A stretch of 64,000 nucleotides of DNA from an uncultured Subdoligranulum sp. (GTDB lineage Bacteria > Bacillota > Clostridia > Oscillospirales > Ruminococcaceae): positions 7,473-71,472 of the forward strand of contig CAZLMA010000005.1 in assembly GCA_964560675.1 (NCBI GenBank). The letters are read 5' to 3'. The translations under genes were made by a program, and so were the position numbers. The notes below the pieces were generated by a model that was not told the origin of the DNA, ran no database searches, and saw only the letters and a list, made by a program, of their open reading frames with translations. The stretch's first letter is position 1. Each line of letters opens with the position of its first letter. Below, piece by piece: positions 18,659 to 63,524 of the stretch.

Positions 18659-20347
18659 ATGGATTCGACAAGAAAATTGATGCTCCCAATCGGGTATGAC
18701 AGTTTTGAGGAAATACGTGGTTACGATTTTTACTACGTTGATAAAACTGGACTTATCAAGGAGCTGCTTGAAAGCAAGGCGAAAGTCACCTTGTTTACCC
18801 GCCCGCGGCGCTTTGGCAAGTCCTTAAACATGAGTATGCTCTCCCACTTCTTCTCGCTAGACGGGGATAAGTCCATTTTTGACGGACTTGAGATCTCAAA
18901 AGAAAAAGAGCTCTGCGAGAGATACATGGGCAAGTACCCGGTGATCTTTCTCACCTTGAAAGGGATCGATGGCTTAAATTATGAATCCGCTTATCAACAA
19001 GCCGCCTGGCTCATCCGAAGTGTTGCCCGTAAGTTGGAATATTTGCAAGACAGTGACAAATTGTCCGCAGCGGACAAGGCGGAATACCGAGCGCTGTTGA
19101 ATTTAAACATGGTAGAGGCAACACTTTGCAACAGCCTTCATACACTGTCGGATTTGCTGGAAAAGCACTTTGGCAAAAAAGTCGTATTGCTCATCGACGA
19201 GTATGACGTGCCGCTTGCGCGGGCCCACGCGAATGGGTATTACGACAAGATGGTCTCGCTGATGCGCAGCATGCTGGGCGCCGCGCTCAAAACCAATACG
19301 AGCCTGGAATTTGCGGTGCTGACAGGGTGCCTGCGTATCTCCAAGGAGAGCATTTTTACAGGGCTGAACAACCTGTCTGTCTATTCCGTCACAGACGAAT
19401 GGTTTGATGAATTTTTTGGCTTTACGGATCGTGAGGTGCAGGAGCTGCTCTCTTATTACGGGCTGACAGACTGTTACGAAGAGATCAGGCGGTGGTATGA
19501 CGGCTACCGGTTCGGCAGCAAAGAAGTCTTCTGCCCCTGGGACGTACTGAACCACTGCGTCCGTCTCAGAAAGAATCCGAAAACGCCACCGCAGAACTAC
19601 TGGATCAACACAAGCGGCAACGACGTGATCAAGCGTTTTGTCGCCATGGCGGACGACAGGACAAGAGAGGAAATCGAAACGCTGGTCGCGGGCGGCACCA
19701 TCGAGAAGGACATCCGCGAAGACCTGACCTACTCCGAGATTTACGATACCATCGACAACCTGTGGAGCCTGCTCTATACGACCGGCTACCTGACTTTGCA
19801 GGGCAGGACGGACGAGGGGCTGCTCAAACTGCGGATCCCCAACCTGGAAGTTCGGGACGTGTATGTCAAGCAGATCCGGGAATATTTTAAAGAGAGCGTC
19901 AAAAAAGACACGGAGACACTGGACGCCTTTTGCGCCGCGCTTTTAAAAGTTGACACAGAGGAAGCGAGGAAATGCCTCACCAAGTACCTACGCAGAACTA
20001 TCAGTGTCCGAGACACCATGGCGAGGGACGAGCAGAAGGAAAACTTCTACCAGGGCGTTCTGGTTGGGATCTTATCAGCTAAGGAGAACTGGAGTGTAAA
20101 ATCCAACCGTGAGAGCGGAGACGGCTACGCGGACATCTTGGTAAGGCCGGATGACGGGGACTTAGAAACAGGGATCGTAATCGAGATCAGATACGGCCGC
20201 GATCTGGACAAGGCCTGCAGAGATGCTCTAGATCAGATCGAAAAGAAAAGATACGCGGAAGAGCTCCAAGAGGAAGGGATCGACACCATTCTCAAGTACG
20301 GCATCGGATTTTACAAAAAGACGTGCCGGGTGATGTTGGGCGAGTGA
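18659..20347 (+). CDS. AAA-ATPase-like protein with C-terminal PD-(D/E)XK nuclease-like domain (PDDEXK_9 type)
   Basis: LPIGYDSF, YYVDKTGLI, RPRRFGKS, LLIDEYDVP, YWINTS, NRESGDGYADI; RBS AAAGGAGG. Confidence 0.9.
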   Translation: MDSTRKLMLPIGYDSFEEIRGYDFYYVDKTGLIKELLESKAKVTLFTRPRRFGKSLNMSMLSHFFSLDGDKSIFDGLEISKEKELCERYMGKYPVIFLTLKGIDGLNYESAYQQAAWLIRSVARKLEYLQDSDKLSAADKAEYRALLNLNMVEATLCNSLHTLSDLLEKHFGKKVVLLIDEYDVPLARAHANGYYDKMVSLMRSMLGAALKTNTSLEFAVLTGCLRISKESIFTGLNNLSVYSVTDEWFDEFFGFTDREVQELLSYYGLTDCYEEIRRWYDGYRFGSKEVFCPWDVLNHCVRLRKNPKTPPQNYWINTSGNDVIKRFVAMADDRTREEIETLVAGGTIEKDIREDLTYSEIYDTIDNLWSLLYTTGYLTLQGRTDEGLLKLRIPNLEVRDVYVKQIREYFKESVKKDTETLDAFCAALLKVDTEEARKCLTKYLRRTISVRDTMARDEQKENFYQGVLVGILSAKENWSVKSNRESGDGYADILVRPDDGDLETGIVIEIRYGRDLDKACRDALDQIEKKRYAEELQEEGIDTILKYGIGFYKKTCRVMLGE

Positions 20348-20619
20348 GCAAAACCAAAAAATAAAAAGACAGAACAATGCCCTAAACAAAGTTTATGCGC
20401 AGACGAACAAAAGCTAGGGATCTGCGGCAAAAAATTTTGTTTCGTCGCGTTGCATTCAGCACGGCGATGGACTGTGTTGCACCGTGTGCCAGTAATCATG
20501 ATCCACACCTTGATCTGCCTTCTTCATGCCGATAGGCAAATTTGTCGAAAAAGTAGAGAATTGTACTTATTGCACAAATATAAAGAGCAAATAGTTGAAT
20601 TGTTTATACACAATAGTTA

Positions 20620-20628
20620 CCCCCCCCC
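20620..20628 (+). repeat. C9 homopolymer directly abutting a -35 box
   Basis: TTA-CCCCCCCCC-TTGACA. Confidence 0.9.
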
Positions 20629-20657
20629 TTGACAATTTCTACTGAATCCGGTATAAT
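20629..20657 (+). promoter_or_regulatory. Perfect-consensus sigma-A promoter of the lipoprotein gene
   Basis: TTGACA-17 nt-TATAAT. Confidence 0.9.
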
Positions 20658-20734
20658 GATGGTAGTTTTCAACAACGGCTTCGGCTGCGCTGCAAATACT
20701 GTTATACAATGGGTTTGCACAGTGCCGCCGGGAA

Positions 20735-20863
20735 GGAAACCCCACCTGCCGTTCCCGAAAGCGATTCGGGAACTCCACCTGCCGTTTCCTCGTACGTGAG
20801 GAAATCCCACCTGCAATTTCCTGCCCTATCGATTTTTGGTAGGAAATTCCACTTGCCATTTCC
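20735..20863 (+). repeat. Four 22-bp quasi-palindromic repeats GGRAAY-YCCACYTGCM-RTTYCC in the 5' leader
   Basis: Cores at 20741, 20774, 20806, 20848 (periods 33, 32, 42); sequences between cores form hairpins. Confidence 0.9.
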
Positions 20864-20890
20864 TCTTGGCAAAGAAAGTGAGTGTGTATC

Positions 20891-22663
20891 ATGAGAACGA
20901 ACAAGCGCCCCATCCTCCGATCTTGCTCCGCTGTGCTCTTAGCTGGCGCATTACTGCTGACAGCCTGCAGCGGCACCTCAGTGCAAACCTCGGACGATTC
21001 CTCCCAAGGATCAAACACGCAAGTAGCCGCCGATTCGAACACGGGTGAGCTGGATGCCACTGCGCAGAACAGCGCGGTCGGCGGAGATCTGTCCGACACC
21101 GTTATTGAGGCGGAGGAAGGGACTGGCGCATGGACAACAGTTGATGCGGCTGGCACCGATGCGGCCGTGGCAGCCACAGAAGTTTCCAAGACCTCTGGGA
21201 ACCAGACACAAAACGGCTCTGCTTCCGCCCCAGAGAGTGCGGAAACCAAGAAGGCCGCAGATAAAAAAGCTACGAAGGATTCGACCGATAGCGAGGAGAG
21301 CGAAAGCGCACTGAGCGTGAGCACTACCTCCGGCAACTCTAAGGTCGCAGGCGCTTCGTCCACCACGGATAAGCAGACAAACGAGACGTCGGATTCCGAT
21401 CAGACGACGGATTCCAACAGCAAAGATTCGGCAGACGAGAAGACCGCCGAGAGCGAAGCCGAAAAGACGGATACCAAGTCCGAGAGCGGAAAAACAGAGT
21501 CTAAGGCCGAAACCGATAAGGCTGAAACCAAGCCCGAAAGCGAAAAGACAGAGTCTAAGGCCGAGGCTGATAAGGCAGAAACCAAGCCCGAGAGCGAAGC
21601 AGAACCGAAGCCGTCGAGCACGCCCAAGCCGAGCGCCGACAGCGAACCGACCAAACCCGCTAACGATGATGGAAGCACAGCCAAAGACAACCCCGACGAC
21701 GTGAAACCTGGCAAGACGGGTTCCGGCTCAACTCCTACGCCGCAGCCGAAGAGGACCCCGGAAAAGGCACCCGAGGAGTCACCCGAAAAGTCACCCGAAA
21801 AGTCACCAGAGAAGACGCCTGAGAAGACGCCAAAGCCCACCGGCCCGCTGCAATGCGAACACGAGTATGGCCCGTGGATTGTGACAAAAGAAGCCACCTG
21901 CACATCCTTGGGTTCCCAATACCGCGTGTGTAAGAAGTGTGGCCAATCGGTGCAGTCCACGTTCGCGGGCGGCGATGCGCCGAATTACCACAACTATGTC
22001 TCTTATCAAAAGAATGCCACCTGCCAGCAAGAGGGGTACAGCGGCCTGCGTTGCACGCTGTGCGGCGCGCTGAAAGACGTTGTGACCATTCCGAAGACAG
22101 AACACAGTTTCGTACAGTTAGGTGATAAAAGGGATCCTGACTGCACGCACGACGGACAACTTGTGGAACAGTGCAGTGTCTGCGGATATACCCGGACGAC
22201 AAAGCTCCCCGCAAAGGGACATAAGTATGAGGAGATTGTTATCGCCCCTACCTGTGCTGACGATGGTTATACAAAATATACGTGCACTGTATGTGGATCG
22301 GAAAAACCAGGCAATTTTACCAAGGCAACCGGACAACATGTTTGGGTGGAAGTAAGCAGCACTAAGGCGACCTGCTCGAAGGCGGGCACTGTGACGGAGC
22401 AGTGCAGTACCTGTCAAGCGACTAGAACCAGAGAAACACAACCGGCTACCGGTCAGCATAACTTTGTACAGGATAGCCGAGAAGAACCTCAATGCGAAAA
22501 ACCTGGTCATCTGGTAGAACATTGTACTGAATGCGGGACTACTCACGAGGTTGATCTTCCGAGTCTGGAACACAACTGGGTCTTGAATCCGGATCGCGAT
22601 GGTTTGAGCTATTGTTCCAGATGCGGCGAAGAACATAGTCAACACAAGGATTCAGAAGAATAG
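20891..22663 (+). CDS. Surface lipoprotein with a low-complexity repetitive stalk and C-terminal Cys/His repeats
   Basis: Signal peptide with lipobox LLTA-C; S/T/E/K/P-rich region; six full H..C..G..CxxC units plus a partial seventh. Confidence 0.85.
   Translation: MRTNKRPILRSCSAVLLAGALLLTACSGTSVQTSDDSSQGSNTQVAADSNTGELDATAQNSAVGGDLSDTVIEAEEGTGAWTTVDAAGTDAAVAATEVSKTSGNQTQNGSASAPESAETKKAADKKATKDSTDSEESESALSVSTTSGNSKVAGASSTTDKQTNETSDSDQTTDSNSKDSADEKTAESEAEKTDTKSESGKTESKAETDKAETKPESEKTESKAEADKAETKPESEAEPKPSSTPKPSADSEPTKPANDDGSTAKDNPDDVKPGKTGSGSTPTPQPKRTPEKAPEESPEKSPEKSPEKTPEKTPKPTGPLQCEHEYGPWIVTKEATCTSLGSQYRVCKKCGQSVQSTFAGGDAPNYHNYVSYQKNATCQQEGYSGLRCTLCGALKDVVTIPKTEHSFVQLGDKRDPDCTHDGQLVEQCSVCGYTRTTKLPAKGHKYEEIVIAPTCADDGYTKYTCTVCGSEKPGNFTKATGQHVWVEVSSTKATCSKAGTVTEQCSTCQATRTRETQPATGQHNFVQDSREEPQCEKPGHLVEHCTECGTTHEVDLPSLEHNWVLNPDRDGLSYCSRCGEEHSQHKDSEE
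21481..21597 (+). repeat. 54-nt (18-aa) tandem duplication in the lipoprotein stalk
   Basis: ESGKTESKAETDKAETKP / ESEKTESKAEADKAETKP; CAGAGTCT at 21495 and 21549. Confidence 0.9.
21754..21838 (+). repeat. 12-nt tandem repeats encoding (S/T/A)PEK
   Basis: TPEKAPEESPEKSPEKSPEKTPEKTPKP. Confidence 0.85.
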
Positions 22664-22799
22664 CACAGCATATCAGCGAGAAAAACGTTTTGGTTGACCA
22701 TGTCGTGATCTGCTACAGCTTCTACCAAATAAAGTATCGTTAGCGAGCACATTTTGTTTTGTACGCTTTTGGTAGAAGCTGGCGATTGGCAAAGCAACC

Positions 22800-22833
22800 A
22801 TCCCCGGTCGGAGAATTTCGCCCGGGGATTTTT
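22800..22833 (+). terminator. Intrinsic terminator downstream of the lipoprotein gene
   Basis: ATCCCCGG/CCGGGGAT stem followed by TTTT. Confidence 0.6.
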
Positions 22834-23286
22834 GTGTACCCGCATGTACCCTGTGGGGTATACCCTACTGCATGGCGGCACGTACACACGCCCGCATCGC
22901 CTAGCTGCGGATTACGCGACCGCGTTTGACTTTGCGCCAGCATTACACACATACTGTTTCTGCTCCCGCGACGCTTTTTCGAGGATGCGCGACATTCCCA
23001 TCTTGCAATCTTTCTACAAATCGTGTACACTTTACAAAAGATAGACAAATGGCGAAGACATTGCTGCGTCAGGGTTGCGCCATGCTCCCCAGACCGCCAA
23101 AACGGCACGCGAAGCGTGCTGCCAGTTGCTTCAGGTTTGCGGTCTTAAGATGGGTACTGTTTTACTTTGCACAGACGCCAGGAACAAAAGGAATGCACGC
23201 TTGAGAGGCTCCATTTGTTCTTTTCGCGTTTTGCCCTACGTTGTGTGGTGTGCGCAAAATCAGCACATAAAGGAGGCTACGGTTTT

Positions 23287-23958
23287 ATGGCGCTGGGGGA
23301 TAACATCCGTTACCTGCGTGAGTCACACGGTTTAACACAGATGGAGCTCGCCCGCATCGCGGGGGTCAGCGACAAGGCGGTCTCAACCTGGGAATCAAAT
23401 CTGCGCATGCCTCGCATGGGGCCGCTGGAAAGGATGGCAAACTATTTCGGCGTGACCAAGGGCAGCCTGCTAGAAGATCTCTACGGCAGTACGCCGTATG
23501 CTGTGCATGCTGCGCCGCAAGGTGACCTGGTTGAGGATCATCCCAGCTGCGAACCGGACAAAGCAGAGCAAAACGACTTAAATATGCACCTGCCCGACAA
23601 AGGCCCTGAAACCAAAACTGTCCCTGCGGTGCAAGAGGTCAGTGCGGTCGATGTGTATGACAATCCGCCCACTTTCGCCGGCGCAGATTTTGGGCTGGTC
23701 TACCGGGGCGACAGCATGGCCCCTACCCTGCTACATGGCGACACGGCGTACATCCGTCGGCAGGCATTTGTTCCAAGCGGCGCGCTGGCCGCGGTTCGCC
23801 GGGGCGAAAGGACTGAGATTGTGCGTATCTTTTATACGGAAGACAGGCTGATTTTGCAGCCGGACAACCGTTTGTATCCGCCGCAAGTCTATAACGGTAC
23901 GCACCCGAAAGAAGTTACCGTTTTGGGCAGGGTCGTAGGTATCTACCGCAAACTCTGA
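23287..23958 (+). CDS. XRE-family HTH + peptidase S24-like (LexA/CI-type) transcriptional regulator
   Basis: LGDNIRYLRESHGLTQMELARIAGVSDKAVSTWE HTH; GDSMAP, ILQPDN, VLGRVVG S24 motifs; RBS AAGGAGG. Confidence 0.88.
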   Translation: MALGDNIRYLRESHGLTQMELARIAGVSDKAVSTWESNLRMPRMGPLERMANYFGVTKGSLLEDLYGSTPYAVHAAPQGDLVEDHPSCEPDKAEQNDLNMHLPDKGPETKTVPAVQEVSAVDVYDNPPTFAGADFGLVYRGDSMAPTLLHGDTAYIRRQAFVPSGALAAVRRGERTEIVRIFYTEDRLILQPDNRLYPPQVYNGTHPKEVTVLGRVVGIYRKL

Positions 23959-61802: not shown

Positions 61803-63524
61803 TTAGCAGCCGATGAGCACGGTCTTTCCGTCAAAGGCAAAGCCGTATTTTCGGATCTGCCCCTCTGCAAAGCCGCGGGCTACAAGTTCCCGATCATAGG
61901 CTTTTTCTTCGATCTGTTCAAGCGCCCTCTTTACGGTTGCCTCCAGATCCTTTTCTTTCTCCTTCTCGAATACCTTGAGCTCCAGGATGATCGCGTTCTT
62001 CTTTTGATCCTTCGGCTCTAGTACCACATCGTACCTGCCGTCCCCGCTCTCTCGGTTAGACCTAAGATAGTACTCACGATCCAGGTAGACCATCAGCCCC
62101 AGCACAAATCCGTGGTAAAAGCGCTCGGGTTCCTGCCCACCTACATCAAAAAAGCTGAACACGGTCTGCGTCACGCGGTTTAGGTTGCGGTTCATGCTCT
62201 CTACGTTGCCGCTTACAAACGCGCGCAGGAAATCCTGGTAGGCGGAGGACGCCCCATTAGAGGAAAACCATCCTCTTACCATGACGCGGAACATTCTAAG
62301 GACTTCCCCGTTGGTCAGCGCAAGGGTATAAGTCGGCAAGTCATCTGCCAGCGTGTCGGCGCCGAAGGTTGGATCCGCGCAGGCGGCCAAATCATACCCT
62401 GCAACGCCAAGCACCTTGAGATAGCCGCCGGCCAGCAGTAAGCTCCACAGAGCGTTGTCGTCTTGGTAGAGTTGGGAGAAGACGATCTGTTCGTCGATCG
62501 GCTTTTGGATGCTTTCGCCTGCCAAAAGCCTCTCGCAGTCCATCTTGACTTCTTTGCTGCCCTGCCGGATTAACACACTGACAAGCGAGTTGCTGCTGGT
62601 GTTGACCCAGTAGGTCCCCAGTTTTCTCTTATCTAGGCAGTTCGTGATGGACCAGGGATTGTAGATATTCTTTGCGCGGCCAAACGTAAAACCATCGTAC
62701 CAGTTCTTAACCGCATCGGCCTGGTCGGTTAAGCCAAATTCCACCAAAGCCCCGTCCACTTCCCGCTGGGTGAAGCCAAAGCATTCTTCATATTCCTCGC
62801 TCGTTGTCGTAACCACATCCAGGTTGTTCAGATCCGAGAAAATGGACTCCTTCGCGACGCGCGTGATGCCTGTCATCAGGCCGCGCTCTAAGTAGGGGTT
62901 GTCCTTGAAAGTTGAGCCGAAAAGCGGGCGCAGAAAGGCTACCAGCTGCTCCCAGTATCCGCTAACATAGGCCTCCTGCAGCGGCGTGTCGTATTCATCG
63001 AGCAGCACAATGACCTTTTTGCCGTAGCAGCGGGAGAGATAACTCATGAGGTTGCGAAGCGATCCGGCGGCGACATCATCTGCCATATCTCTGCCAATTG
63101 CCTCAAACGACGCTTTTTCGCCGTCCGATAGCAGATTTTCTTGTAACAGAAAACGGTTTTTCTCATAAAGCCCCTGGATTAGACCGCAGATACTCTTTTT
63201 TGCCACCGCAAAGGTTGTAAATTTCACCTCAGAGAAGCCCAAAGACAGGACGGGGTACGTGCCCTGCAAGGAGCGAAAGCGCTCCTCCCGCCAGATGGAA
63301 AGGCCCTCAAAAAGCTCCGTTCTTCCGGCGTAGTTTGCACCGAAGAAGCAGTTTACCATGTCCATGGTTAAGGTCTTGCCGAACCGGCGCGGGCGCAGGA
63401 TCGCGGTCACTTTTGCGCCACTGTCCCACCATTGCCGGATAAAATCTGTTTTATCGACGTAAAAATACTGTTTTTTGCGGAGGGTCTCAAAAAACTCTTC
63501 TCCGATCGCTACGGTCCTTGCCAT
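61803..63524 (-). CDS. AAA-ATPase-like protein with C-terminal PD-(D/E)XK nuclease domain (PDDEXK_9 type)
   Basis: FYVDKT, RPRRFGKT, LLDEYDTP, YWVNTSSN, NRESGDGRYD...ILELK. Confidence 0.92.
   Translation of the reverse strand: MARTVAIGEEFFETLRKKQYFYVDKTDFIRQWWDSGAKVTAILRPRRFGKTLTMDMVNCFFGANYAGRTELFEGLSIWREERFRSLQGTYPVLSLGFSEVKFTTFAVAKKSICGLIQGLYEKNRFLLQENLLSDGEKASFEAIGRDMADDVAAGSLRNLMSYLSRCYGKKVIVLLDEYDTPLQEAYVSGYWEQLVAFLRPLFGSTFKDNPYLERGLMTGITRVAKESIFSDLNNLDVVTTTSEEYEECFGFTQREVDGALVEFGLTDQADAVKNWYDGFTFGRAKNIYNPWSITNCLDKRKLGTYWVNTSSNSLVSVLIRQGSKEVKMDCERLLAGESIQKPIDEQIVFSQLYQDDNALWSLLLAGGYLKVLGVAGYDLAACADPTFGADTLADDLPTYTLALTNGEVLRMFRVMVRGWFSSNGASSAYQDFLRAFVSGNVESMNRNLNRVTQTVFSFFDVGGQEPERFYHGFVLGLMVYLDREYYLRSNRESGDGRYDVVLEPKDQKKNAIILELKVFEKEKEKDLEATVKRALEQIEEKAYDRELVARGFAEGQIRKYGFAFDGKTVLIGC

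Follow-up and report, generated by a model that had tools for sequence, protein, structure and literature searches.

Four quasi-palindromic units in the predicted 5' untranslated leader of a lipoprotein gene from an uncultured Subdoligranulum sp. probably form an RNA structure

In this study, we analysed a 64,000-nt stretch of the genome of an uncultured Subdoligranulum sp. (hereafter the window) and, within it, a short repeat array that lies between a consensus promoter and the start codon of a lipoprotein gene. The array is made up of a 22-nt unit, GGRAA-NN-CCACYTGC-NN-TTYCC, which is present in four direct copies starting at positions 20735, 20768, 20800 and 20842. We conclude that the element is real and is probably an RNA structure, and that, while unclassifiable, it is of a familiar kind, the structured mRNA leader, and not a demonstrable new class. 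The reading that we favour, tentatively and with a confidence a little short of even, is that the array forms a lineage-specific, cis-acting structured 5' UTR that tunes mRNA stability or translation, with a putative binder for its C-rich cores.

Results

A consensus promoter and a long predicted leader precede a lipoprotein gene

A sigma-70-type promoter, TTGACA-17-TATAAT, is located on the + strand at 20629 to 20657 and agrees with the consensus at 12 of 12 positions. Judged from the position of this promoter, transcription would start at approximately 20664 to 20666, giving a predicted 5' untranslated leader of approximately 226 nt (20665 to 20890, + strand). The promoter-to-ATG distance is 234 nt, with no called gene in between. 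The gene that follows (20891 to 22663, + strand) encodes a 590-aa lipoprotein with the lipoprotein signal MRTNKRPILRSCSAVLLAGALLLTAC, the lipobox LLTAC, a low-complexity stalk and C-terminal Cys-rich repeats; the protein matches no Pfam family. A putative intrinsic terminator, read from the sequence as UCCCCGG...CCGGGGA followed by UUUUU, is found 3' of the gene (22801 to 22834, + strand), and therefore the gene is probably monocistronic. This terminator was not listed in the terminator scan because its loop is longer than 8 nt. An HTH_3 and peptidase S24 (XRE-S24) repressor gene lies at 23287 to 23958, 2.4 kb downstream of the array, and the stretch between the lipoprotein terminator and this gene (22664 to 23286, 620 nt) is free of genes.

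The sequence surrounding the promoter and the gene has several other features. A C9 homopolymer tract adjoins the -35 hexamer (20620 to 20628, + strand) and is a possible phase-variable tract. The genome contains 23 G/C runs of 9 to 10 nt, this tract included, and its run lengths have a second mode at 9 to 10 nt (159 runs of 6 nt, 17 of 7, 6 of 8, 18 of 9 and 5 of 10). The context of these long tracts is often TA-C9, another of them precedes a TTGACA at C17:26882, and as a group they resemble phase-variable contingency tracts. Directly upstream of the C9 tract and promoter are two TTGT...ACAA palindromes, TTGTACTTATTGCACAA (20561 to 20577) and TTGTTTATACACAA (20601 to 20614), which may represent operators or UP elements; within the window, the 17-nt form shows no enrichment. 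The octamer CCACCTGC is also found twice in the part of the lipoprotein gene that codes for the Cys-rich repeats (21894 to 21901 and 22017 to 22024), each time specifying A-T-C (in EATCTS and NATCQQ), probably by coincidence.

Four uniformly oriented units alternate with diverged spacers

A repeat search returned a single direct-repeat family of four copies, spaced 33, 32 and 42 nt apart, all on the + strand: unit 1, GGAAACCCCACCTGCCGTTCCC (20735 to 20756); unit 2, GGGAACTCCACCTGCCGTTTCC (20768 to 20789); unit 3, GGAAATCCCACCTGCAATTTCC (20800 to 20821); and unit 4, GGAAATTCCACTTGCCATTTCC (20842 to 20863), in which a C-to-T change in the core creates a UUG. The cores are located exactly where the original prediction had placed them, with CCCACCTGCC at 20741, TCCACCTGCC at 20774, CCCACCTGCA at 20806 and TCCACTTGCC at 20848. 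Any two units are identical at 17 to 19 of 22 positions (77 to 86%), and 14 positions are invariant. The geometry of the unit is fixed at 5-N12-5, such that the distance from arm to arm is equal in all four, and each unit is 77 to 79% self-complementary with its neighbour. The core itself is asymmetric and has the same orientation throughout. The spacers, GAAAGCGATTC, TCGTACGTGA and TGCCCTATCGATTTTTGGTA, are 11, 10 and 20 nt long and cannot be aligned with one another. Spacing of the units by approximately 3, 3 and 4 helical turns, which had also been predicted, holds, the distances being equivalent to 3.1, 3.0 and 4.0 turns of 10.5 bp.

The unit is confined to this locus. The pattern GGRAANNCCACYTGCNNTTYCC has four matches in the 2.04-Mb genome, all in this array, and its reversed control has none. 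The bare 8-mer core occurs 60 and 61 times on the two strands, compared with approximately 41 expected, and is not enriched genome-wide; the array is the only place in the genome where at least three cores cluster on the same strand. A lone unit copy with two mismatches, on contig C35, was discarded as it lies inside a 766-aa ORF, and a scan of the genome for other clustered 8-mer repeats returned coding repeats only.

The leader is predicted to fold as a chain of hairpins

On the + strand, the leader is predicted to fold with an energy of -84.2 kcal/mol (z -4.83), and none of 200 shuffled sequences folded as well; the minus strand has a z of -2.53. The fold opens with a 5' domain hairpin, P0 (20683 to 20731; -19.2 kcal/mol, compared with -13.1 for the minus strand). 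The three stems that had been described between the cores are all present: H1 (20751 to 20773, -12.4 kcal/mol), in which GTTCCCGAA and TTCGGGAAC form 9 perfect base pairs; H2 (20784 to 20805, -9.0 kcal/mol), in which GTTTCCTC and GAGGAAAT form 8 bp, with one G·U, closed by the loop GUACGU; and H3 (20815 to 20848, -12.5 kcal/mol, compared with -7.9 for the minus strand), in which AATTTCCTGCC and GGTAGGAAATT form 11 bp, again with one G·U. H1 and H3 are retained in every fold predicted, constrained or not. Their G·U pairs give H3 and P0 an advantage of 4.6 and 6.1 kcal/mol, respectively, on the + strand. The C(UUCG)G hairpin proposed near the 5' end, GGCUUCGGCU, is indeed present in the sequence, yet it lies outside the minimum free energy fold.

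Because each unit is a quasi-palindrome, an alternative register exists in which units pair with each other. In this register, units 1 and 2 form long hairpin A (20734 to 20790, + strand; inverted repeat I2, -23.7 kcal/mol), where internal loops with CA/UG pairs are predicted to set the two cores opposite one another, and units 3 and 4 form long hairpin B (20798 to 20865, + strand; inverted repeat I1, -26.0 kcal/mol), whose basal stem is GAGGAAAU/AUUUCCUC. The two registers differ between units 2 and 3: the 3' arm of the former and the 5' arm of the latter either pair to form H2 or close the long hairpins, and H2 thus competes with the basal stems of these hairpins. Over 20725 to 20915, the ensemble energy is -62.0 kcal/mol with H2 enforced, -61.1 with both long hairpins enforced and -63.9 without constraint; the competing folds therefore differ by no more than approximately 3 kcal/mol, which is within the error of the energy model. 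The original prediction had posited a different pair of exclusive folds, with the cores acting either as linkers or as loops. The second of these, with 5-bp arms and 12-nt loops, is no competitor, since its bare hairpins reach only -7 kcal/mol and, when enforced, it attains at best -24.9 kcal/mol compared with -50.4 unconstrained (20731 to 20870).

The spacers contribute to the structure despite their divergence. On the + strand they extend the arm helix by 3, 3 and 4 pairs, a total that random spacers of equal lengths reach in 0.04% of trials (P ~4e-4). On the minus strand the extensions are 3, 2 and 1, a drop due to the two G·U pairs among those of the + strand. Conserved units, diverged spacers and this strand asymmetry point to selection on the structure of the + strand RNA, evidence that comes from a single sequence, with no homologue in the collections searched.

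The start region is predicted to be similarly accessible in the competing folds

A weak Shine-Dalgarno (SD)-like sequence, AAAGTGAG, is located at 20875 to 20882 (+ strand), 8 nt before the ATG; the leader carries AAAGUGAG where the genome consensus is AAAGGAGG. A last stem covering the ribosome binding site (RBS), as had been proposed, is not predicted. Instead, UUGCCA (20853 to 20858) pairs with UGGCAA (20868 to 20873) around the loop UUUCCUCU, forming a last hairpin (20853 to 20873, + strand) directly 5' of the RBS and leaving the SD-like sequence approximately 50 to 60% unpaired. Unit 4 is able to pair in this way because the C-to-U change in its core makes UUGCCA. Across all folds compared, the predicted accessibility of the SD-like sequence is 0.53 to 0.63, and folding therefore does not show an RBS switch.

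The same change in unit 4 supplies the UUG of a possible 13-codon upstream ORF, TTG...TGA (MPFPLGKESECVS; 20853 to 20894, + strand), whose frame is open within an ORF at 20709 to 20894 and whose stop overlaps the main start codon as ATGA. An SD-like AGGAAA lies 8 nt upstream of it, buried in H3. This ORF is speculative, and the probability that it arises by chance is several per cent.

Relatives of the leader were sought and not found

The original prediction recognised no known riboswitch, T-box, CRISPR or type III antitoxin in the leader, and in agreement with this Rfam 15 has no match to it at gathering score. At E values up to 10, the region 20550 to 21000 returned only a chance match to mir-873, on the minus strand (E 0.54; 17 bits, compared with a gathering score of 95), and the window as a whole returned only tmRNA and one tRNA. 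BLAST searches with the leader against 63 same-genus genomes, plasmids (PLSDB) and phages (INPHARED) found no relative. The unit pattern is absent from 61 relatives, where matches with two mismatches are at control level, and IMG/VR holds one single match, from which no relative was established. A two-unit pattern had two chance matches, inside genes, in JGI metagenomes. Among the matches listed for a three-core pattern over genome contigs, most were coding repeats of high-GC taxa, and the two listed from Clostridia proved to be a tandem repeat and a coding repeat. We also built a covariance model of the arrangement core-hairpin-core on the three overlapping unit pairs (self-scores 37 to 62 bits). 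Across 400 order-level and 400 class-level genomes it returned single matches in coding DNA at chance number, with best foreign scores of 25 to 29 bits. Homologues with stem covariation or core conservation, on which the original prediction had staked its reading, were thus found nowhere in the collections searched. In the literature searched, the core sequence was met only in primers and unrelated sequences.

The only other public trace of the locus is an identical 5.3-kb Logan contig. A sibling strain that is 96.3% identical (sample SRR14209495) is represented by a contig that ends within the gene, short of the leader, and the upstream regions of three relatives contain no similar leader. 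The gene is equally restricted: none of the 63 same-genus genomes holds an orthologue of the lipoprotein. Over 1000 distant relatives of its Cys-rich domain are known, but identity exceeds 44% for none of them, whether in the protein collection or in the genus, and the proteins that share this module are distant paralogues only. Nor is the neighbouring HTH-S24 repressor conserved in the genus.

Within the genome itself, none of 142 other leaders that follow near-consensus promoters resembles this one. When all 143 such promoters were clustered by downstream sequence, the only groups to emerge were AAA-ATPase paralogues and tRNA genes. The former amount to approximately 17 paralogous AAA-ATPase (PF09820) and PD-(D/E)XK_9 genes in the 2-Mb genome, including two in the window (18659 to 20347 and 61803 to 63524) and others on contigs such as C2, C3, C6 and C5 (outside the window), each with its own TTGATA-18-TATAAT promoter and with 5' regions that are 82 to 98% identical. 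P0127, pursued as a route to an orthologous locus, is instead related to the upstream AAA-ATPase as a mosaic paralogue; it equals the window copy in its centre and differs at its ends, which suggests gene conversion. As for the tRNA genes, a conserved module of approximately 90 nt, AAAAAAGCGCGAYRTGACGTT...CCGCGCTTTTTCTTTTTG and then ...TTTTGACTACTTTTTGA (sequence approximate), is found downstream of at least five of them: tRNA-Asn (contig C27), tRNA-Thr (C32 and C16), tRNA-Lys (C5, outside the window) and tRNA-Arg (C13). This module may be a shared terminator with a repeated motif, or an attachment site.

Discussion

A proposed structured leader acting in cis

According to the reading that we favour, the consensus promoter would drive a monocistronic lipoprotein mRNA with a 5' untranslated leader, and the leader RNA would form successive stable hairpins, namely P0, H1, H3 and the last one, assembled from the four copies of the unit. 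Since the arms GGAAA and UUUCC of a unit can pair with either neighbour, two arrangements of the leader are predicted. In one, H1, H2 and H3 would follow each other with the C-rich cores, CCACCUGC, single-stranded between the hairpins; in the other, the two long hairpins would form and the cores would face each other in internal loops. An mRNA that is strongly transcribed and has a weak RBS could be shielded by the hairpin array from 5'-end-dependent decay, and the four near-identical cores would be candidate sites at which a sequence-specific factor adjusts translation or stability. That the cores are nearly identical is not accounted for by hairpins alone, and the simplest reason would be such a binder, which is putative. 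We infer each of these steps, from transcription at this promoter and the folds to the function and any binder, from the sequence and its predicted structure.

The original prediction had offered three alternatives for the array, and the RNA-level element is the best supported of them, given the palindromic spacers, the strand-specific G·U pairs and the better + strand fold. The folding results give no backing to the part of that proposal in which the RBS is exposed by a flip of register, and no partner for the RNA was identified. A more elaborate version, in which four single-stranded C-rich patches of identical sequence (YCCACCUGC), lying between the hairpins, make the leader a multivalent landing pad for an RNA-binding protein (for example, one with a KH domain) or the 30S subunit, with binding selecting between H2 and the two-long-hairpin register and so setting how much of a phase-variable surface lipoprotein is made, strikes us as quite improbable.

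Alternative explanations

One point against a cis-acting UTR is that the 5-N12-5 geometry and the helical-turn spacing fit DNA operators equally well. In that case, a dimeric DNA-binding protein would occupy the 22-bp quasi-palindromes, GGAAA-N12-TTTCC with an inner CA..TG symmetry. Bound cooperatively along a single helical face, downstream of the promoter, it would act as a transcriptional roadblock or as the anchor of a loop. The constant arm-to-arm distance, the self-complementarity between neighbouring units, the centre-to-centre distances close to whole helical turns and the XRE-S24 repressor gene nearby are all consistent with operators, which the original prediction had offered as one of its alternatives. 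On our own estimate, though, the phasing alone would arise by chance in approximately 5% of cases. Operators would not need palindromic spacers with G·U pairs on the + strand only, nor an asymmetric core in uniform orientation; no unit overlaps the promoter, and no further unit occurs elsewhere in the genome, including before the XRE-S24 gene, whose product is itself not conserved in the genus. We therefore regard phased operators as unlikely. We assign a similarly low probability to the array having no selected function beyond that of a tolerated leader. It would then be peculiar to this lineage and have arisen by local duplication or slippage, when a small palindrome was copied within an accessory locus that evolves fast. 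In support of this, the array is found in one species only, gene, leader and neighbouring repressor have no orthologues in the 63 same-genus genomes, the genome is rich in repeats and homopolymer tracts, and tandem quasi-palindromic units create hairpins between units automatically. Neutral decay, however, would erode units and spacers equally, whereas here the units are conserved and the spacers, which cannot be aligned, are nonetheless palindromic to an extent rarely reached by random sequence; in addition, the perfect consensus promoter suggests a highly expressed gene under selection. The contrast between units and spacers, together with the strand asymmetry, thus argues against neutral decay of a duplication and against a signal that acts purely at the DNA level.

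Action in trans, or as a decoy, is a further explanation, and we consider it very unlikely. Here, a released sRNA would sponge AGGUGG SD sequences by means of CCACCU, or the leader would serve as a rut site or as a CsrA-type sponge. The cores do constitute C-rich, G-poor single-stranded patches approximately 32 nt apart, and they share CACCU with what we take to be the anti-SD at the 16S 3' end, a part of the rRNA that is absent from the assembly. Against release of an sRNA, no GC-rich hairpin with a U-tract is found between 20665 and 20890, where the only terminator-like match is a weak stem of 7 pairs, two of them G·U, with an interrupted U-run. The original prediction had taken AGGUGG to be an SD variant in use in the window, but it is uncommon, preceding 18 of 1544 long ORFs compared with 253 of 1544 for GGAGG, and the 42 CAGGTGG sites that precede a start codon are mostly inside genes. 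A double GCAGGTGG site on contig C39 was considered as a target in trans and was not convincing. The Rho RNA-binding domain (PF07497) and CsrA (PF02599) were not detected in the genome, which is rated 100% complete. A Rho-dependent attenuator, for which C-rich linkers would be available, was rejected on this ground, as was a CsrA sponge or a CsrA-controlled leader, which would expose GGA in hairpin loops, whereas here GGA is present in the stem arms only.

If the leader is functional, a regulatory 5' UTR would have been assembled fast, from one small quasi-palindrome, before a newly acquired surface-protein gene, and its cores would point to a sequence-specific RNA binder in uncultured gut-type Clostridia. 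As a single-genome curiosity that has no family, it cannot yet inform the classification or annotation of RNAs.

Comparison with known systems

The antitoxin arrays of type III toxin-antitoxin systems (ToxI, CptI and TenpI) consist of near-identical tandem repeats followed by a terminator and a ToxN/AbiQ-type endoribonuclease gene. The present locus is similar in that a promoter is followed by direct repeats of approximately 32 to 42 nt ahead of a gene. We rejected this assignment, as the units are 77 to 86% identical with variable spacers, no terminator separates array and gene, and the downstream protein carries a lipoprotein signal, has no toxin domain and is not of the ToxN/AbiQ type. A CRISPR array, taken as repeats of 23 to 47 nt with unique spacers of at least approximately 21 nt and usually cas genes, was likewise rejected, since the spacers here are 10, 11 and 20 nt long and palindromic, and only four units are present, between a promoter and an ATG. 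Short direct-repeat arrays directly upstream of start codons, of unproven function, have been described in Beggiatoaceae as TAACTGA heptamer repeats (PMC4679880). Those heptamers are contiguous and occur at approximately 170 loci per genome (PMC4679880), in contrast to the one locus, 22-nt units and hairpin-forming spacers described here.

Among RNAs that bind proteins multivalently are CsrB and RsmZ, which present GGA motifs, the TRAP-bound trp leader and 5' leaders with several CsrA sites. CsrA can act on a leader (PMC2896534). Like these RNAs, the present leader repeats a short motif interleaved with hairpins. Unlike the targets in CsrB, RsmZ and the TRAP-bound leader, its motif is CCACCUGC and not GGA or (G/U)AG, and it belongs to an mRNA leader and not to a free sRNA.

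Stabilising leaders are a further point of comparison. A chain of hairpins near the 5' end is a classic means by which Gram-positive mRNAs are protected from 5'-end-dependent decay, and the leaders of S-layer slpA genes and the E. coli ompA 5' UTR are further examples of structured, stabilising leaders. In B. subtilis, the highly structured 5' UTR of hbs stabilises its mRNA against 5'-end-dependent decay (PMC5737220). The locus described here shares with hbs, slpA and ompA a strong promoter, a long hairpin leader with single-stranded segments and a gene for an abundant or envelope protein. It differs from them in that their leaders have a strong SD and no four-copy unit, whereas this leader has a weak SD and near-exact repeats of a 9-nt core.
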